From an uncultured Candidatus Soleaferrea sp. (GTDB lineage Bacteria > Bacillota > Clostridia > Oscillospirales > Ruminococcaceae), in the NCBI GenBank assembly GCA_934527325.1, contig CAKTAG010000016.1, positions 1 through 19,151 of the forward strand: 19,151 nucleotides of DNA, read 5' to 3'. The position numbers were made by a program, and so were the translations under genes. How positions within the stretch are numbered: position 1 is the first letter of the stretch; every line of letters begins with the position of its first letter. The notes beneath the pieces are model-generated. The model made no database searches. It was given only the letters and a program-made list of their open reading frames with translations, and was not told where the DNA came from. Below, one piece after another: positions 8,764-15,372 of this stretch.

Positions 8764-10500
8764 ATGTTGGACGGTTTTTTTCTTAGTTTTATAATAGATG
8801 AGGTAAAAAATAAAGTTTTAAATTGCTATGTTGATAAATTATATCAACCTTCTAAAAATGAAGTGGTGTTACATTTTAGAACTCAAGGTAGCCCCAAGCT
8901 CTTAATATCTGCTAACCCAGATCAATCTAGAATAAATTTTATAAATGAAAAAATTGAACATCCACCAATACCATCTATGTTTTGTATGTTGTTGCGGAAG
9001 TATTTGGTTAATGCTAAACTTGTTAATGTATGTCAGCAAAATTTTGAAAGGCTAGTTTTTTTAGATTTTTATACATCAAATGAGGTGGGGGATAAAATTT
9101 CTGTTCGGTTAGTTGTAGAAGTTATGGGTAAGCATTCAAATATAATTTTGTTAAAGCAAGGTAATAATGTTATAGATTCTATAAAGCGTGTAGGTAGCGA
9201 TATATCTAGAGTAAGGCAAATTTACCCAGGTGTTATATATCAATTACCTCCTTTACAATGTAAGTGTAATATAGTAAAAAATAATGTAGATGAGATAGTA
9301 AATCAAGTATTGTTATTTTCAGATGAAACGTTGCCATCAGCAATTGTTAAAGCTGTTCAGGGAATTTCTTATACTATGGCCGATGAAATTTCTTTTGTTG
9401 TAGTTAATAATTTAGATTTTAAAGTTAAAGATTTAAATTTAGACCAGATTGAACAATTGAAAAAAAATTTTTGTAATTTAAAAATTTTAATAGAAGGTAA
9501 ACTTGGTTCACCGCTTTTGTTTAAAACTTTTGATGGCGAAATGAAAGATTTTTATTTTACAGAATTATGTAAATTTAAAAATAATGGTATTATAAGTAAA
9601 AAAAATTCTTATTCAGAATTGGTAGAAGAGTTTTATAAAAATAAAACAAATGAATGTAGAGTTAAACAGAATGCAAATGATGTACTTAAAATTTTAATGA
9701 ATTGTTTAAAGAAAACAAAAAAGAAATTACAAATCCATGAATTAGAAAAAGCGAATTGTGAAAATAAAAATAAAATACAACAGACAGCAATTTTACTTCA
9801 AAGTAACTTGCATTTGGTAAATAAAAATAGTAGTTATATTGTAGTAGAAAACTTTTTTGATAATAATAATAAAATAAAAATTGACTTAGATAATACAATT
9901 TCTGGGGCAGCAAATGCTCAAAAATATTTTAATAAATATAAAAAATTATGTGTAGCAGATAAAGTGTTGGATGAGTTGATTATAAAAACTAAAAATGAAA
10001 TTATTTATCTAGAATCAGTTATAGATGCTGTAATGAGGTCTACATCTTTAGAGGACATAATGCAAATTAAATTAGAGTTGCAACAAGAGGGGTATTTAAA
10101 AAAACATAAAAAACAAGCTAAAAATGTTAAAATAAAATCTCCTAAAGAGTCTGTTTTGAAAGTAAAGTCTGTAGATGATTTTGATATATTAGTTGGAAAT
10201 AACAATGTTAATAATGATTGGTTAACACTTAAATATGCAAATAAAAATGATTTGTGGTTACATACTCAAAAAATACCAGGTGCACATGTAGTAATTGTTA
10301 CTAATGGCAAAGATGTACCTAACACAACTGTTGTTCAAGCTGCAAAAATAGCAGCAGAACATAGTAAAGCAAAAAATAGTAATTTAGTACCTGTAGATTA
10401 TACTATAATAAAAAATGTAAAAAAATTTTCGGGTGCTAAGCCTGGTATGGTTAAGTATAGTAATTTTAAAACAATATTTGTAAAACCAGAAGTTAATTAG
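8764..10500 (+). CDS. rqcH: RqcH (NFACT / FbpA-DUF814 family) ribosome quality-control factor
   Basis: NFACT-N motifs PSMFCMLLRKYL and VEVMGKHSNIILL, a central coiled coil, and the C-terminal DUF814 motif LWLHTQKIPGAHVVI. The 578 aa length is typical. RBS GAGGG upstream. Confidence 0.93.
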   Translation: MLDGFFLSFIIDEVKNKVLNCYVDKLYQPSKNEVVLHFRTQGSPKLLISANPDQSRINFINEKIEHPPIPSMFCMLLRKYLVNAKLVNVCQQNFERLVFLDFYTSNEVGDKISVRLVVEVMGKHSNIILLKQGNNVIDSIKRVGSDISRVRQIYPGVIYQLPPLQCKCNIVKNNVDEIVNQVLLFSDETLPSAIVKAVQGISYTMADEISFVVVNNLDFKVKDLNLDQIEQLKKNFCNLKILIEGKLGSPLLFKTFDGEMKDFYFTELCKFKNNGIISKKNSYSELVEEFYKNKTNECRVKQNANDVLKILMNCLKKTKKKLQIHELEKANCENKNKIQQTAILLQSNLHLVNKNSSYIVVENFFDNNNKIKIDLDNTISGAANAQKYFNKYKKLCVADKVLDELIIKTKNEIIYLESVIDAVMRSTSLEDIMQIKLELQQEGYLKKHKKQAKNVKIKSPKESVLKVKSVDDFDILVGNNNVNNDWLTLKYANKNDLWLHTQKIPGAHVVIVTNGKDVPNTTVVQAAKIAAEHSKAKNSNLVPVDYTIIKNVKKFSGAKPGMVKYSNFKTIFVKPEVN

Positions 10501-11083: not shown

Positions 11084-11112
11084 ATTCTATACTATATTAT
11101 TAGTAAAGTCAA
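11084..11112 (-). promoter_or_regulatory. Candidate promoter for the DUF1292 gene
   Basis: The minus strand reads TTGACT (11112-11107), a 17-nt spacer, then TAGAAT (11089-11084). It lies about 60 nt upstream of the ATG at 11022. Confidence 0.5.
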
Positions 11113-11227: not shown

Positions 11228-11881
11228 CTACAAATTAATCAAATTGCAATCTTTAATTGTATAAATTTTATCACATTCATTAGCAATATTAACATTATGT
11301 GTAACAATTAATATTGTTTTACCATTTTTATTTAATTGTTTTAATATCTGTAATATTTCTTTTGACGTTTCTTCATCTAACGACCCTGTAGGTTCATCTG
11401 CTAAAATTATTTCACAAGGTTTTAACATTACTCTGGCTAAAGATACCCTTTGCTGTTCGCCTCCACTAAGTTCATATACTTTATTATCCATTTTATCAGA
11501 TAATCCTACATACTCCAATACCTTTTGCTTAGCCAGCTGTTTTTCTTTTTTATTTTTATTTACATATTCCAGTGCTATATCTAAATTTTCAGATACAGTT
11601 TCATTATCTACTAAAGCAAAATTTTGAAATATATAACCTATTAAATTTCTATGCGCTAATGTAACTTGTTTGCCATCTATTTTACTATATCTTTTATTGT
11701 TAAGTATAACATCTCCACTATCAGGTTTTTCTATTAAACCAATTATATTTAGCAATGTAGATTTTCCCGAACCTGAACCACCCATTATTGCTATCATTTC
11801 ACCTTTATTAACTTTTAAATTAACATTATTCAGTATCTCTTTATTGCCAAAACTTTTCTTAATATTTTTTAACTCTATCAT
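11228..11881 (-). CDS. ABC transporter ATP-binding protein (MacB/FtsE-like subfamily)
   Basis: Walker A GGSGSGKST, Q-loop, signature LSGGEQQRVSLAR, Walker B ILADEPTGSLD, H-loop VTHN. Its ATG lies 2 nt after the permease stop (GGGGAATAAATATG). Confidence 0.93.
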   Translation of the reverse strand: MIELKNIKKSFGNKEILNNVNLKVNKGEMIAIMGGSGSGKSTLLNIIGLIEKPDSGDVILNNKRYSKIDGKQVTLAHRNLIGYIFQNFALVDNETVSENLDIALEYVNKNKKEKQLAKQKVLEYVGLSDKMDNKVYELSGGEQQRVSLARVMLKPCEIILADEPTGSLDEETSKEILQILKQLNKNGKTILIVTHNVNIANECDKIYTIKDCNLINL

Positions 11882-11883
11882 AT

Positions 11884-14169
11884 TTATTCCCCTTTCAACA
11901 CACTGCTGATTTTTTTATTTTCATATATTTTAAGTAATACTGCTGAAATAACTACATCTCCTAATACAATTCCTAATAATATTTTCCAATTTACAGACTC
12001 TATATAAAAATTGCTACTTGGTACCAATTTATCTATTAACACTATTTTACTTGGTATGTAAAATAAACATATCACTTTGTCTACCAGTTCTCCATTGTAA
12101 TTTATTAACAACATTAAACAAATTGATATTAACCATATTAATAATAAACTTCCAAAAAAACCTATACTTCTTTTTGCAAACCCGACCCCATTAAGTTTTT
12201 TTACTGTATTTTTTACCTTATTTTGTTCAAGGTAATTTATACACGATGATATAATTAACATCAATAATAATATAACAGAAAATATTGCATATTCTATTGT
12301 ATATATAAATTCTTGTTTAATTTCATAAATTTTTTGAGCTGCCGTTTCATATAACGTTTTTGCACTTATTAACAAGTTATCAATATTACAATCTTTAATA
12401 TCAGATATCACATCTTGGTATGGGTTATCTATATTACTAATTTTAGGGTAAAACCCATTACAATCACAACACCCATAGCTATCTATACACATATTATTAT
12501 TACTAATAACTTGTATTATTGAACCAATAACATAATTTTGCGTTTCTGTAGCTAAGTCCGTTTGATATGTAAAACACTTTTGGCCATCTTTAATATAAAT
12601 TATGTTTAATTTGTAATCTGGCCAATTATTACTATAAAATTCACCTTTATATTTTTCTTGAATTTGTTTTTCATATAATTTTAATCTTTCAGGTACAAGT
12701 AAATTTAAAGTATGTTCATCATGGTCAGGTATGTTAATTTGTTTACCGTTAATACCATATATTGGGTTGAGTTGTAAATAATTATTATTTACCTTTATAC
12801 TTTTTCCCAATATTTCATCTATTTTATTTTTTTTAATGTTTCCTCTTAACTTTTGTTGTTTTTCATATTCATCAATTCCTGCCCGATGATTTCTTGCATT
12901 AATATAAATTTCTCCTTTTTTGTTGCATATTTTAAACCATTTTTTCATATTTAAATCTAAATTTTCTACTTTTTCATCGTTATCACGTCCTGCAACTGTT
13001 CCTTCAAATAATCCACTACGTTTTACTAAAGTGTAATTTAACGCATTATCCCAAATTTTATTTCCTTCCATTTTGCCTATTAATAAATATAAACTATTGC
13101 TGCTATTTATTATAGCAGTTACCATTGCTACACTTATAAAGCATTTAGATATATTATTAATATTTTGTATTACCTTTACTGGTTTCTTATTTTTTAACAT
13201 CAACGGTATTTTTACATATTTTATAAACATAAGAGGAATAGCCATTAATAAAATAGAAATCAATGTTAATTTAAAATTAAACAATAACCAGTTTTTAAAA
13301 AATATACTTAAATTTTTTAAACCTAATTTATATATTAAAAAACTGAAAATCATAAAACCAGATAATCCACACCCGTATATATGGTACTTTAACAACTTTT
13401 TAAAAATAATCTTGATTTTTAAGCTAACATTTGATTCCCCAAACATTTTTTTTATAGCAAGTTCTTTATAAATAGAAAATAGCCAATATATCATCGTTAA
13501 AAATGTAATTACATATATTATAATCAATATTCCTATAATATTATTCTTTAAGCGGTAACATTCATCAGACTGCAACATATCTATTTCATTACTAGATGGT
13601 ACATAAAAAATTACTTCTTCACAACCTAATTCATTTTTCAAATCTTTTTCTAATAATTTAATTTTAGTTTGATTATTTGTATCAACAAACCATTTACTAA
13701 TTAACTCTCCATTATATAAAATACCAGATAAATTATATATGTTAAGAATAGAATCTAAGCTAAAAAATTCAAATTTCCCAAGTTGATTTTCGTCTTTTAA
13801 ATCTTCTGAAGAAATAAATTTATTGTAAAAATCTTCATTTCTTAAAAGTCTACCATTTGAAAGTTTTAATTTGTTAAACATATTTCCATTACATGTAGAA
13901 TAAACTCTAATCGTTCTTTTTCCATTCCCTGACTTGCTTTTATAACTAACATTATATATATTTAAATTATGCTTCTTAGATAGTGATTCAAAAATTTCTA
14001 TTAACTGTTTTGGAGTATTAATTTTTTTTACATTATATATACGAAAGCAAGAAACATTATCATCTTTCCATAATATGTTTCTAACATTTTTAAATTCATA
14101 TAGGCTAATATAAACTATTGAGGTTAAAAAATAAATTAAAAATAAAAAAATAGATATTAATTTTTTCAA
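11884..14169 (-). CDS. Large polytopic ABC permease, DUF1430 / FtsX-like 'bacteriocin-associated integral membrane protein' type
   Basis: 761 aa with a TTG start preceded by AAGGGAG. The architecture is TM1, an extracytoplasmic domain of ~190 aa, a TM cluster, a second extracytoplasmic domain of ~250 aa (with a CIDSYGCCDCNG motif), then 3 C-terminal TMs. FtsX-like loops KKMFGES and KKLNGVGFAKR are present. It is immediately followed by the ABC ATPase, as in lactococcin-972 loci. The family call rests on architecture and context. Confidence 0.85.
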   Translation of the reverse strand: MKKLISIFLFLIYFLTSIVYISLYEFKNVRNILWKDDNVSCFRIYNVKKINTPKQLIEIFESLSKKHNLNIYNVSYKSKSGNGKRTIRVYSTCNGNMFNKLKLSNGRLLRNEDFYNKFISSEDLKDENQLGKFEFFSLDSILNIYNLSGILYNGELISKWFVDTNNQTKIKLLEKDLKNELGCEEVIFYVPSSNEIDMLQSDECYRLKNNIIGILIIIYVITFLTMIYWLFSIYKELAIKKMFGESNVSLKIKIIFKKLLKYHIYGCGLSGFMIFSFLIYKLGLKNLSIFFKNWLLFNFKLTLISILLMAIPLMFIKYVKIPLMLKNKKPVKVIQNINNISKCFISVAMVTAIINSSNSLYLLIGKMEGNKIWDNALNYTLVKRSGLFEGTVAGRDNDEKVENLDLNMKKWFKICNKKGEIYINARNHRAGIDEYEKQQKLRGNIKKNKIDEILGKSIKVNNNYLQLNPIYGINGKQINIPDHDEHTLNLLVPERLKLYEKQIQEKYKGEFYSNNWPDYKLNIIYIKDGQKCFTYQTDLATETQNYVIGSIIQVISNNNMCIDSYGCCDCNGFYPKISNIDNPYQDVISDIKDCNIDNLLISAKTLYETAAQKIYEIKQEFIYTIEYAIFSVILLLMLIISSCINYLEQNKVKNTVKKLNGVGFAKRSIGFFGSLLLIWLISICLMLLINYNGELVDKVICLFYIPSKIVLIDKLVPSSNFYIESVNWKILLGIVLGDVVISAVLLKIYENKKISSVLKGE

Positions 14170-14189
14170 TTATTTCTCCCTTCTAACAC

Positions 14190-14235
14190 AAATAAATTAT
14201 TACCAGAAGTAATTACTTCTGGTAATAATTTATTT
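14190..14235 (-). terminator. Perfect 46-nt palindrome (23-bp arms): intra-operon hairpin, likely a partial terminator or transcript stabiliser
   Basis: AAATAAATTATTACCAGAAGTAATTACTTCTGGTAATAATTTATTT is exactly self-complementary. It starts 24 nt after the stop of the Lcn972-like ORF and ends about 10 nt before the permease RBS. Confidence 0.6.
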
Positions 14236-14259
14236 AATATGTAATGAATAATATTTTAC

Positions 14260-14550
14260 TCAATCTTGAGTGTATCCACATTTTTTATCTATGCTACATC
14301 TGTGCCAAAAACCATGTCCATGTTTAGAACTATGCCTATAATTATCTTTTTGTTCTGAACGTGCAATAACACCACGTGCCACACATATCCTATCTGTTTC
14401 CCAAGATGTTTCGTTATAAACTTGTGTTGAAGCTCCATGAGGTTTTGTGTTATGTAAATATTCAGAGTATATTATATCATCACCATTTTCCTCGCAATAT
14501 CCCACAATCCAGTTTTCGCCACCAACTTTACTAATCACTTCTTCCCACAT
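14260..14550 (-). CDS. Lactococcin 972-family bacteriocin-like protein, without a signal peptide
   Basis: By-eye alignment to the mature Lcn972 peptide as I remember it (EGTWQHGYGV..AYSNYHHGSKTHSATV..RAGVWAKATV..FYYNFW). The matches are GENWIVGY / IIYSEYLHNTKPHGASTQV / ARGVIARSE / HGFW. The DUF1430-like permease and ABC ATPase lie directly downstream. The start is uncertain: ATG at 14550, or GTG at 14538. Confidence 0.7.
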   Translation of the reverse strand: MWEEVISKVGGENWIVGYCEENGDDIIYSEYLHNTKPHGASTQVYNETSWETDRICVARGVIARSEQKDNYRHSSKHGHGFWHRCSIDKKCGYTQD

Positions 14551-15047
14551 CCTTTATCAGACTTTTCATATATAATATGTAACGTTAATCTATATGTAAA
14601 GCAAAATAATAAATAAGTACACCAATATGTTATCTGATACATAAATTCCCATTTGACAAATACTATATAGCAAAAAATCCATAGCCATTGACCACAATAG
14701 TATAATATTAGTTCCCATTTATTATGAAATCTAGTTAAATCTTTTTGATAATCTCTCTTCACTTTAGACTTTATACATTTATATACTCGAGCCAAATTTT
14801 TACTTAATACACCATTGTTTTTTCTATCAATTATCTTAGATGCAAAAAATATTATATAAATAAAAATAAAACCTAACAACAATAAAAAAGAGCATATTAA
14901 AAAAAATTCTAAATTATACTGATTTGTCATTACCATAATCTCTAAAAGAAATAAATCAGAAGATATAAACAAGCAAAACAACACTTTACTTAATTTACTT
15001 CGAAAAATTTTACTTAAGTGGTTATCTATATTACAGATATCCTTCAT
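14535..15047 (-). CDS. Uncharacterised small membrane protein (~4 TM), candidate immunity/accessory protein
   Basis: A 170-codon ORF, which is very unlikely by chance in DNA this AT-rich. The ATG overlaps the upstream stop (ATGA at 15044-15047). It has hydrophobic segments at about aa 22-40, 48-70, 113-132 and 139-158, and a basic loop SKIIDRKNNGVLSKNLARVYKCIKSKVKRDYQK. I recognise no family. Confidence 0.7.
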   Translation of the reverse strand: MKDICNIDNHLSKIFRSKLSKVLFCLFISSDLFLLEIMVMTNQYNLEFFLICSFLLLLGFIFIYIIFFASKIIDRKNNGVLSKNLARVYKCIKSKVKRDYQKDLTRFHNKWELILYYCGQWLWIFCYIVFVKWEFMYQITYWCTYLLFCFTYRLTLHIIYEKSDKGCGKK

Positions 15048-15304
15048 AAAATTTTAGTCCCCTTTATATTATTTGTGATATTTGCAGGTTCAGGATATTT
15101 AGCAGCTTCGCTACCTAATTCATACCCTTCACATGCTTCAGTAAGAGCTCCTACAACAGCAGCTGCAGCCTTACTCTTAGGTGGTGGTGCTCCATCTTTA
15201 ACCTTACTAGGCTCAACACGCCCCATATCATTAGATATAATTAATGTATTTGCCACTAATAAACTAGCACTCAAAAAAGTAATAAAATATTTCTTTAATT
15301 TCAC
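15044..15304 (-). CDS. Small secreted protein (signal peptide plus an Ala/Pro/Gly-rich part of ~60 aa), unknown function
   Basis: The tracked ORF starts at a TTG (15328). The GTG at 15304 follows AAGG with an 8-nt spacer and gives (M)KLKKYFITFLSASLLVANTLIIS, a typical n-h signal region. The locally GC-richer stretch has G/C in codon positions 1-2 (Ala/Gly/Pro) and A/T at position 3, which supports this frame. Confidence 0.6.
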   Translation of the reverse strand: MKLKKYFITFLSASLLVANTLIISNDMGRVEPSKVKDGAPPPKSKAAAAVVGALTEACEGYELGSEAAKYPEPANITNNIKGTKIL

Positions 15305-15343
15305 ATTTTCAGCCTTATTATTAATCAATTATATTATATTTTC

Positions 15344-15372
15344 ATTGTAACCTAAACACAATAAAACATCAA
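15344..15372 (-). promoter_or_regulatory. Candidate promoter of the accessory cluster
   Basis: The minus strand reads TTGATG (15372-15367), a 17-nt spacer, then TACAAT (15349-15344). It lies about 40 nt upstream of the GTG at 15304. Confidence 0.5.

Follow-up and report, generated by a model that had tools for sequence, protein, structure and literature searches.

A Five-Gene Lactococcin 972-Type Cassette in an Uncultured Candidatus Soleaferrea sp., with a Probably Non-Producing, Immunity-Retaining Allele

Gene Organization of the Cassette

A bacteriocin cassette of the lactococcin 972 (Lcn972) type was analyzed in a stretch of 19,151 nucleotides (referred to as the window) from an uncultured Candidatus Soleaferrea sp. 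(assembly GCA_934527325.1, contig CAKTAG010000016.1). Lcn972-type bacteriocins bind lipid II, have a narrow spectrum, and shape pneumococcal and gut communities, and the roles of their partner genes are largely untested. The cassette contained five genes, g1 to g5, in which two genes (g1 and g2) preceded a peptide, permease, and ATPase trio (g3 to g5). Compared with the intact cassette at the same site in another strain, the window copy is probably a decayed, non-producing allele that retains immunity, a so-called "cheater".

The five open reading frames (ORFs) were all located on the minus strand between ispH (LYTB, E 8e-82) and a DUF1292 gene (E 4e-11), in agreement with the original prediction, which had been made from the sequence alone. 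The first gene, g1 (15044–15304, minus strand), has a GTG start and encodes 86 aa; with the alternative TTG at 15328, the product would have 94 aa (15044–15328). The intact g2 (14535–15047, minus strand) encodes a 170-aa membrane protein with four transmembrane (TM) segments. It is followed by g3 (14260–14538, minus strand), with a GTG start and 92 aa, or 96 aa if the alternative ATG at 14550 is used (14260–14550). Furthermore, g4 (11884–14169, minus strand) encodes an intact 761-aa permease of the DUF1430/bact_immun_7tm type, and g5 (11228–11881, minus strand) an intact 217-aa ATP-binding cassette (ABC) ATPase of the Lcn972-associated subfamily.

The junctions described previously were all present in the sequence. 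An ATGA overlap at 15044–15047 joins g1 and g2, and a TAA-AT-ATG junction at 11881–11886 joins g4 and g5. The 16-nt overlap of g2 and g3 exists only with the ATG start of g3, and the GTG start gives a 4-nt GTGA overlap. While the ORFs stood as proposed, the homologs favored GTG 15304 (86 aa) for g1 and GTG 14538 (92 aa) for g3. The g3 product of the related contig L001 (P0001) begins MISKK at the homologous GTG, and gene callers used GTG in L004–L006, L009, L051, L052, L056, and L057, with ATG used just in L007 and L008. The ATG start is possible, but an AAGG abuts it without spacing.

Two ORFs on the plus strand, 15018–15350 (110 aa, over g1/g2) and 13073–13471 (132 aa, over g4), seem to arise merely from the AT-richness of the coding sequence opposite them and not to be genes. 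An alternative genetic code (TGA = Trp) was disfavored by the long intact ORFs under table 11.

Family Assignment of the Peptide, Permease, and ATPase

The canonical Lcn972 cluster consists of three genes (PMC4055356, PMC6120550, PMC4289311), and the trio of g3, g4, and g5 had been proposed to be of this type. The profile hidden Markov model (HMM) searches bore out the proposal, with family matches for both g3 and g4. The match of the window g3 to PF09683 Lactococcin_972 was marginal (22.7 bits, cut-off 22.0, E 1.5e-4); all 6 members of the g3 subfamily matched this model, with a best E of 4e-8. For TIGR01653, the window g3 (21.1 bits) and P0001 (29.3 bits) were both below the cut-off of 32.1. 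In a comparison of the subfamily profile with the PDB, 9HKJ ('Lactococcin 972 family bacteriocin') was matched with E 0.002 and 2LGN with E 0.15. The AlphaFold2 (AF2) model of P0001, a full-length g3 relative, reached a predicted local distance difference test score (pLDDT) of 39 from an alignment of only 4 sequences, too low for a judgement on the beta-sandwich fold of Lcn972 (PDB 2LGN). No relative was found for the g3 profile among the GTDB species representatives, or for the g3 profile and g4 in the JGI metagenomes.

The permease g4 possessed seven hydrophobic segments and matched PF07242 DUF1430 with 30.8 bits (cut-off 28.2). Over residues 1–691, it also matched TIGR01654 'bacteriocin-associated integral membrane protein' (E 4e-37), with 127.9 bits and thus below the cut-off of 189.35. 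The score of g5 for TIGR03608 L_ocin_972_ABC, which NCBIfam names a putative bacteriocin export transporter, was 284.1 bits (cut-off 254.85), and that of the L045 homolog was 270.7. By this profile, g5 is clearly assigned to the Lcn972-associated ABC ATPase subfamily.

The Two Upstream Genes

The g1 product is an Ala/Gly-rich, predicted secreted protein with a hydrophobic N-terminus at residues 6–24 by hydropathy, and this signal peptide is kept in the window. Its homologs comprised P0006, P0007, and the g1 of L002, L043, L044, L045, and L049. Full-length g1 proteins had 126–153 aa (153 aa in L001). They start with a Sec-type signal peptide with an AxA-like site (..VQA/MGK, ..SNA/MGK) and a conserved N-terminal segment (GKVxPSxVVNGAxxPKxG..DR..KLAGS), continue with two Ala/Gly-rich hydrophobic helices of the glycine-zipper type, and end in the tail ..G(C/Y)xxGxEAAKYPK. 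Searches of Pfam and NCBIfam assigned g1 to no family and gave just sub-threshold Gly-zipper-type matches (E 0.001–0.15) in 1–2 members, and the PDB profile search gave no match.

For g2, hydropathy and the distribution of positive charges predicted four TM segments with both termini inside, and the central loop was strongly basic (13 K/R in 42 residues). The AF2 model was all-helical with four TM helices (pLDDT 66), and Foldseek found no fold match for it in the PDB. The matches of g2 to Pfam and NCBIfam were at chance level only, with no family. The idea that g2 is a thiol oxidase of the DsbB/VKOR kind that serves the Cys-rich g3 was considered and rejected, as g2 has one invariant Cys only (C25, inside TM1) and no CxxC. 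A g2–g3 fusion by frameshifting, which would yield a membrane-tethered Lcn972 domain, was rejected likewise: GGGAAGAAGTGA contains no slippery site, the C-terminus of g2 is predicted to lie in the cytoplasm, and the genes of the relatives are separate.

Relatives of both genes were rare. Word-indexed searches of 5.8 billion proteins yielded 2–3 relatives each for g1 and g2, and an exhaustive HMMER profile search of 1.84 billion cluster representatives yielded just 6 g2-family representatives. Five of these were placed on contigs; the sixth, P0005, is a 100-aa fragment and was left out of the neighborhood comparison. In all five, cassette genes lay on both sides of g2 as far as the contig reaches, with a g1 homolog upstream and, where the sequence extends, g3 followed by the DUF1430 gene and the ABC ATPase downstream. 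The five-gene synteny was observed in six other variants (L001, L002, L043, L044, L045–L048, and L049/L050). In addition, g1 and g2 were upstream of g3 in 7/7 variants with sequence upstream of g3, so that the cassette has five genes and not three. The complete cassette of L045–L048 encodes products of 131, 155, 114, 702, and 218 aa in an unrelated context. There, AAA-ATPase_like/PDDEXK_9 genes (6494–9417 of L045) lie on one side and a relB/yafQ toxin-antitoxin pair (13720–14221) on the other, a variable and possibly mobile context, in contrast to the housekeeping context of the window.

The original prediction had stated that the two upstream genes had no counterpart in the Lcn972 system, which held in that they belong to no described family and are no annotated component of such loci. 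The suggested neighborhood comparison showed that the placed g2 homologs do co-occur with Lcn972 loci. Since every placed g2 relative was inside the same cassette, g1 and g2 are real partners of the trio and no accidental neighbors, and on this synteny they define a five-gene cassette variant.

The two genes might also work independently of the trio and be merely linked to it, for instance as a secreted glycine-zipper membrane toxin and its own 4-TM immunity protein. This would agree with the secretion signal, the two Ala/Gly-rich hydrophobic helices, and the weak Gly-zipper HMM matches of g1, and with the size and topology of g2, which are typical of class II immunity proteins. It would also fit the state of the window, where damage has hit both putative toxins and spared both putative immunity functions. 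Against it, no placed g2-family representative (0/5) was found outside the cassette, g1 and g2 accompanied every subfamily g3 for which upstream sequence was available, and a single promoter precedes genes that overlap or are tightly packed. An independent module is very unlikely. It concerns the intact cassette, and would be compatible with a decayed allele in the window.

Loss of the Signal Peptide and Other Changes in g3

The contig L001 (5.4 kb), from another sample, has its cassette at the same site. L001 is of the same species, as its cmk, plsC, and ispH are ~99.5% identical to those of the window. Full-length g3 proteins have 114–121 aa, with a signal peptide, a V-x-G-G-x-W-x-V-G-Y motif, HGASTQV, and a Cys-containing C-terminal extension, HGHG[FY]WHRCGI[DE]IxxCNGAxxNFD(Y), of 25–30 aa that is missing from Lcn972 itself. 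The five signal-peptide-bearing relatives compared (P0001, P0002, and the g3 of L044, L045, and L049) all end ..CG[IA][DE]IxxC[NG]GAxxxFD(Y).

The atypical character of the Lcn972 homolog, which had been pointed out before, was seen first of all in its N-terminus: the Sec signal peptide was present in 5/5 relatives and missing in the window g3. P0001 has 120 aa and begins MISKKVVNILFGVCIISALSFFVFAEKVGGGNW, whereas the window g3 reads MISK-VGGENW. In the pairwise alignment with the L001 g3, a 69-nt in-frame deletion (scar at 14527–14530, minus strand) had removed the core of the signal peptide and its cleavage site, and the window g3 thus lacks a signal peptide because of this deletion. The near-repeats AAAAAGGTTG and AAAAAGTTGG bound the 69-nt segment in L001. 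Accordingly, the maximum hydropathy over 19 residues was -0.1 in the window, with no hydrophobic segment, compared with 2.52 in L001, and the TIGR01653 match of the window g3 begins only at model position 30.

The remainder of g3 had changed as well. The G-x-W-x-x-G-[YF] motif is broken in the window (VGGENWIVGY), where a Glu replaces the Gly two residues before Trp that was kept in 5/5 relatives, in Lcn972 (EGTWQHGY), and in 9HKJ (EGGTWRYGF). Of the three substitutions between the mature g3 of the window and that of L001, two were at invariant sites, the G-x-W Gly (G to E) and the HRCG Gly (G to S). In addition, the 3' end of g3 was replaced (14260–14286, minus strand), with the tail ..CSIDKKCGYTQD in place of the conserved ..CGIDIENCNGAFENFDY; this segment forms the left breakpoint of the divergent g4 allele. 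The allele P0026 (33-kb contig L057), also without a signal peptide, carries A59V and H102Y, both at invariant positions. A 75-aa g3 variant, P0024, was set aside as a probable end artefact, since it is at the very end of its contig.

Deletion in g1 and Frequency of the Deleted Allele

The g1 gene had also been shortened. Compared with the L001 g1, there was one gap, a 177-nt in-frame deletion (scar at 15158–15169, minus strand) where the blastn segments overlap, with GCTGC-type microhomology. It removed 59 codons with both hydrophobic helices and left the N-terminal signal peptide, and both the window g1 and P0006 lack ~59 central residues. Long forms were present in the more distant L002, L043, L044, L045, and L049. 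Because the distant relatives all carry long forms, the long state is the ancestral one, and the window forms arose by deletion. Moreover, L055 and L057 shared a +1 T insertion that causes a frameshift in g1, in a sub-lineage. Taken together, the changes suggest relaxed selection on g1 and g3 at the sequence level. A hypervariable patch was observed in g1 at 15120–15155 (codons ~51–62), which reads GALTEACEGY in the window, L051, and L001 and GAAYGVCEWY in L004–L009 and P0006; several adjacent nucleotide changes in otherwise near-identical contigs suggest a small recombination patch.

The deleted allele was found in contigs from at least 9 samples of several studies (ENA, Logan), including Hadza gut metagenomes, and was the commonest one in the assemblies. 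Its identical occurrence in samples of different studies argues against an assembly artefact as the source of the deletions. L051 (ERZ27287456, 19.3 kb) was 100% identical to the window in all nine genes compared, and NCBI protein records without names matched the window g2, g3, g4, g5, ispH, and NFACT products.

Another explanation is that the system is functional with a leaderless Lcn972-type bacteriocin, in which a cytoplasmic 92-aa g3 would be exported by g4/g5 and the short g1 would serve as a secreted helper. Dedicated ABC exporters are known for other leaderless bacteriocins. Seven near-identical contigs were compared, and all share the same intact g3 ORF; the in-frame deletion left a near-exact mature N-terminus, the genes are still translationally coupled, and the allele is the commonest one. 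The g4 allele, which differs from that of L001, might further match the altered C-terminus of g3. However, all other subfamily members, as well as Lcn972, mediterrocin, and streptococcin B, use a Sec signal peptide (PMC11796350). The window g3 also lacks the invariant G-x-W Gly, the HRCG Gly, and the C-terminal NGAxxNFD motif, P0026 alters two further invariant residues, g1 is frameshifted in a sub-lineage, and the promoter and ribosome-binding site (RBS) are weaker (see below). A working leaderless system is thus quite improbable. In its boldest form, g3 would be no pseudogene and the first leaderless Lcn972-family protein, either exported by the DUF1430/ABC pair or acting in the cytoplasm on inner-leaflet lipid II, in a regulatory or self-addiction role; we give this little credence. 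If it were true, the dominance of the allele would reflect selection and not decay, and export of g3 by its DUF1430/ABC partner would mean that this transporter class exports as well as protects.

Replacement of g4 and State of the Downstream Genes

The nucleotide similarity to L001 stops at position 14286 of the window, eight codons before the g3 stop, and the g3–g4 spacer is unrelated. The window g4 had 27% identity over 335 aa to the g4 of L001 and 32–35% to those of L002 and L045, and the g4 products of L001 and L002 were 49% identical. By these comparisons, position 14286 marks a recombination breakpoint with allelic replacement of the permease gene. Allelic replacement by recombination has been described at the bacteriocin hot spots of pneumococci (PMC6120550).

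The genes g2, g4, and g5 were undisrupted. g2 was full length in every contig covering it, and differed from the L001 g2 by 11 non-synonymous and 3 synonymous changes; it evolves fast and is never broken. The full-length g4 ORF was intact in the window, L004–L008, and L051, and the partial copies in L053 and L057 were undisrupted. For g5, which was undisrupted wherever covered, 2–3 synonymous and 0–1 non-synonymous changes were counted between strains. In strains otherwise 99.7% identical, the non-synonymous differences of g4 were F42V, R43C/H, Y45H, and V47I, and also E420A and I445N. Codons 42–47 (~14029–14046), 420, and 445 are in predicted extracytoplasmic domains, with codons 42–47 in the first, and residues 42–47 may be a specificity hot spot.

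Promoter, Ribosome-Binding Site, and Hairpin

The candidate sigma-70 promoter TTGATG-17-TACAAT was found upstream of g1 at 15372–15344 (minus strand, 9/12 consensus matches), as originally proposed. On its own, the site was not above chance, as the region contained 49 promoter-like sites compared with 45 expected from shuffles. Its support comes from its conserved position and not from the scan score: the same position in the conspecific L001 holds a perfect TTGACA-16-TATAAT. The RBS of g1 is AAGG (AAGGCTG) in the window and AGGAGGTG in L001. The promoter site is thus conserved in position and weaker by consensus in the window than in L001, and the g1 RBS is weaker as well.

A perfect palindrome of 46 nt (14190–14235, minus strand, 23/23 complementary) is located between g3 and g4 and is followed by a U-rich run, UUUAUUUGUGUU. 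The 93-nt g3–g4 spacer containing it (14170–14262) folds with -29.7 kcal/mol (z = -6.7), and 0/200 shuffles were as good. All window-type alleles carried the palindrome, and the corresponding spacers of L001, L002, and L045 lacked it. It went unreported in the scan for consensus terminators. The element resembles a terminator or attenuator and could reduce the transcription of g4 and g5.

The weak promoter and the hairpin would also be in line with a dead relic, in which g4 and g5 are no longer expressed or useful and the whole cassette is on its way out. The promoter has fallen from a perfect consensus to 9/12 matches, the very stable hairpin with its U-run is just upstream of g4, and g4 differed from that of L057 by 13 non-synonymous to 10 synonymous changes. 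L055 may show the loss of everything after codon 30 of g3. By contrast, the 761-aa and 217-aa ORFs are undisrupted in all contigs covering them, although a neutral AT-rich ORF of 2.3 kb would soon gain stop codons. The few non-synonymous changes in g5 (0–1, against 2–3 synonymous) and the clustering of those in g4 at residues 42–47, like a specificity hot spot and unlike random decay, also argue against a relic, which is therefore unlikely. In L055 (2.2 kb), g3 breaks after codon 30 (..EYLH), and the following sequence (2086–2176) is absent from the window and the other loci; a new ORF (ATGAAAAAATGTTTATC) begins after the break, and the contig ends 90 nt later. Either the cassette has undergone a larger deletion or a replacement here, or the assembly is chimeric.

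Proposed Function of the Intact and the Window Cassettes

In the intact form (L001, L002, L044, L045–48, and L049), both g1 and g3 carry predicted Sec signal peptides. On the model of Lcn972, streptococcin B, and mediterrocin, the g3 peptide would leave the cell and target the envelope of competing cells, with g4/g5 as the protection of the producer. Since g1 decays along with g3, it may act as a second secreted effector or as a helper specific to producers. g2 persists with g4 and g5 and may for this reason be an immunity or accessory membrane protein, presumably a second one that is paired with g1.

In the window, two in-frame deletions flanked by microhomology took the signal peptide from g3 (69 nt) and, from g1, its hydrophobic core (177 nt). 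Recombination put a divergent allele in place of the C-terminus of g3 and all of g4, and the promoter and the g1 RBS drifted off consensus. As g3 would no longer be secreted, no bacteriocin would be produced, and the intact g2, g4, and g5 could still protect the cell. In-frame deletions may have been favored since they keep the translational coupling to the downstream protective genes; that both deletions are in-frame is what would be expected if frameshifts broke this coupling. The pattern is that of a 'cheater' cluster, with g3 and g1 disabled, g2/g4/g5 undisrupted, and intact alleles at the same site in L001. A non-producing, immunity-retaining allele is thus the most probable state of the window copy.

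Several points weigh against this interpretation. The g3 frame is still open (92 aa), and before the replaced C-terminus begins, its mature region departs from that of L001 by just three substitutions. Among the seven near-identical contigs compared, g3 showed 100% conservation, and its start, MISK-VGGENW, is close to the predicted mature EK-VGGGNW. Export of the leaderless g3 through g4/g5 is conceivable, given the NCBIfam name of TIGR03608. For most Lcn972 loci, the immunity role of the B and C genes still awaits experimental verification (PMC11796350). The position of 4/5 g3 changes at invariant sites has P ~0.14 by chance, and the counts are too small for a formal ratio of non-synonymous to synonymous substitution rates (dN/dS). 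L055 and L057 come from neighboring ENA accessions and may not be independent. Finally, a weak promoter together with the strong hairpin ahead of g4 could leave g4/g5 poorly expressed as well.

The cassette had been regarded as a possible new variant of a production/immunity system. That view holds for the intact five-gene cassette found elsewhere, but the window copy is decayed and probably confers immunity only, and its atypical features are derived damage in comparison with L001 and five more distant relatives. The trio is already known. The new elements are the architecture of five genes, with g1 and g2 included, and the peptide subfamily, which is rich in Cys and extended at its C-terminus; both seem to be limited to a few uncultured gut bacteria. 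This rare architecture, of which all examples so far are from uncultured gut Firmicutes, expands the trio by a secreted protein of glycine-zipper-like type and a 4-TM protein, and the intact cassette would be a new two-secreted-component subclass of Lcn972 systems. The decay lowers the value of the window copy as a new bacteriocin. It does offer a natural experiment in one species, the intact L001 against a dominant allele with in-frame deletions in both secreted components, and this natural knockout predicts which genes are on the toxin side and which on the immunity side. For annotation, the Lcn972 match of this genome should not be taken as the sign of a bacteriocin producer.

Chromosomal Context

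Beyond the flanking genes, the window contained cmk, plsC, an NFACT gene, a CotF-like gene, and other housekeeping genes. Among the GTDB species representatives, ispH gave matches of only 33–49% identity, all in unrelated taxa. The CotF-like gene and a GC content of 27% suggest a gut Firmicute that forms spores. The original prediction had noted no recombinase and no convincing flanking repeats, and likewise the searches around the cassette found no recombinase or mobile-element genes and no meaningful flanking repeats. The guanine-cytosine (GC) content was ~22–26% inside the cassette and ~26–30% in the surroundings. A TTGACT-17-TAGAAT site (11084–11112, minus strand, 10/12 matches) upstream of the DUF1292 gene suggests that this gene has its own promoter and is outside the cassette operon.

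The NFACT/FbpA-like gene (8764–10500, plus strand, 578 aa) was polymorphic among near-identical contigs. It was split into 475 + 82 aa in L007 and called as a 516-aa product without a Pfam match in L004/L052, and its 90% cluster oddly included 53-aa JGI proteins labelled 'putative transposon-encoded protein'.

Comparison with Known Systems

A close likeness is to the lactococcin 972 operon of Lactococcus lactis pBL1 (lcn972/lclA, orf2/lclB, orf3/lclC), which has the same order of peptide, DUF1430 (TIGR01654-type), and TIGR03608 genes on one strand behind one promoter (PMC4055356). Compared with it, the window cassette adds g1 and g2, which lie upstream and have no family. The g3 subfamily differs from Lcn972 in its conserved cysteines and its C-terminal extension of 25–30 aa. 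In addition, the window matches to TIGR01653 and TIGR01654 are below the NCBIfam cut-offs, and the window peptide is without a Sec signal peptide.

Full-length g1 resembles the class IIb and glycine-zipper peptides in its GxxxG/AxxxG-rich hydrophobic helices, and g2 resembles the multi-TM immunity proteins as a small multi-pass protein encoded directly downstream of g1. Unlike class IIb peptides, g1 has a Sec-type signal peptide instead of a double-glycine leader and a mature form of ~100 aa; as g1 and g2 had no significant HMM match to bacteriocin or immunity families, the likeness is one of composition and topology only.

The mediterrocin biosynthetic gene cluster of Mediterraneibacter gnavus is likewise an Lcn972-family locus of a human-gut Firmicute with DUF1430 (mdcH) and ABC (mdcI) genes (PMC12345188). 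Its unassigned genes include one for a likely secreted protein, which can be set beside g1/g2 by description only (PMC12345188). It differs in gene order, with mdcF as the bacteriocin gene and an unassigned gene between mdcF and mdcH, and in the presence of a regulator and mobile elements (PMC12345188). Furthermore, mediterrocin has a Sec signal peptide of 25 residues (PMC12345188), and the window g3 has none.

The streptococcin loci of pneumococci, with their partial scbBC clusters, are alike in the replacement of alleles by recombination at a fixed chromosomal site (PMC6120550, PMC11796350). Partial streptococcin clusters are frequent in pneumococci; most of them lack the bacteriocin gene, keep the B and C genes, and have been read as cheaters (PMC6120550), and ~25% of pneumococcal strains carry scbBC without scbA (PMC11796350). 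The streptococcin clusters have three genes and not five as here. In the pneumococcal partial clusters, the bacteriocin gene and a promoter element are deleted outright, whereas in the window the g3 ORF remains with its signal peptide excised and its C-terminus replaced. The window and L001 together would offer a clean gut example of producer/cheater dynamics and of allele swapping at a bacteriocin locus.

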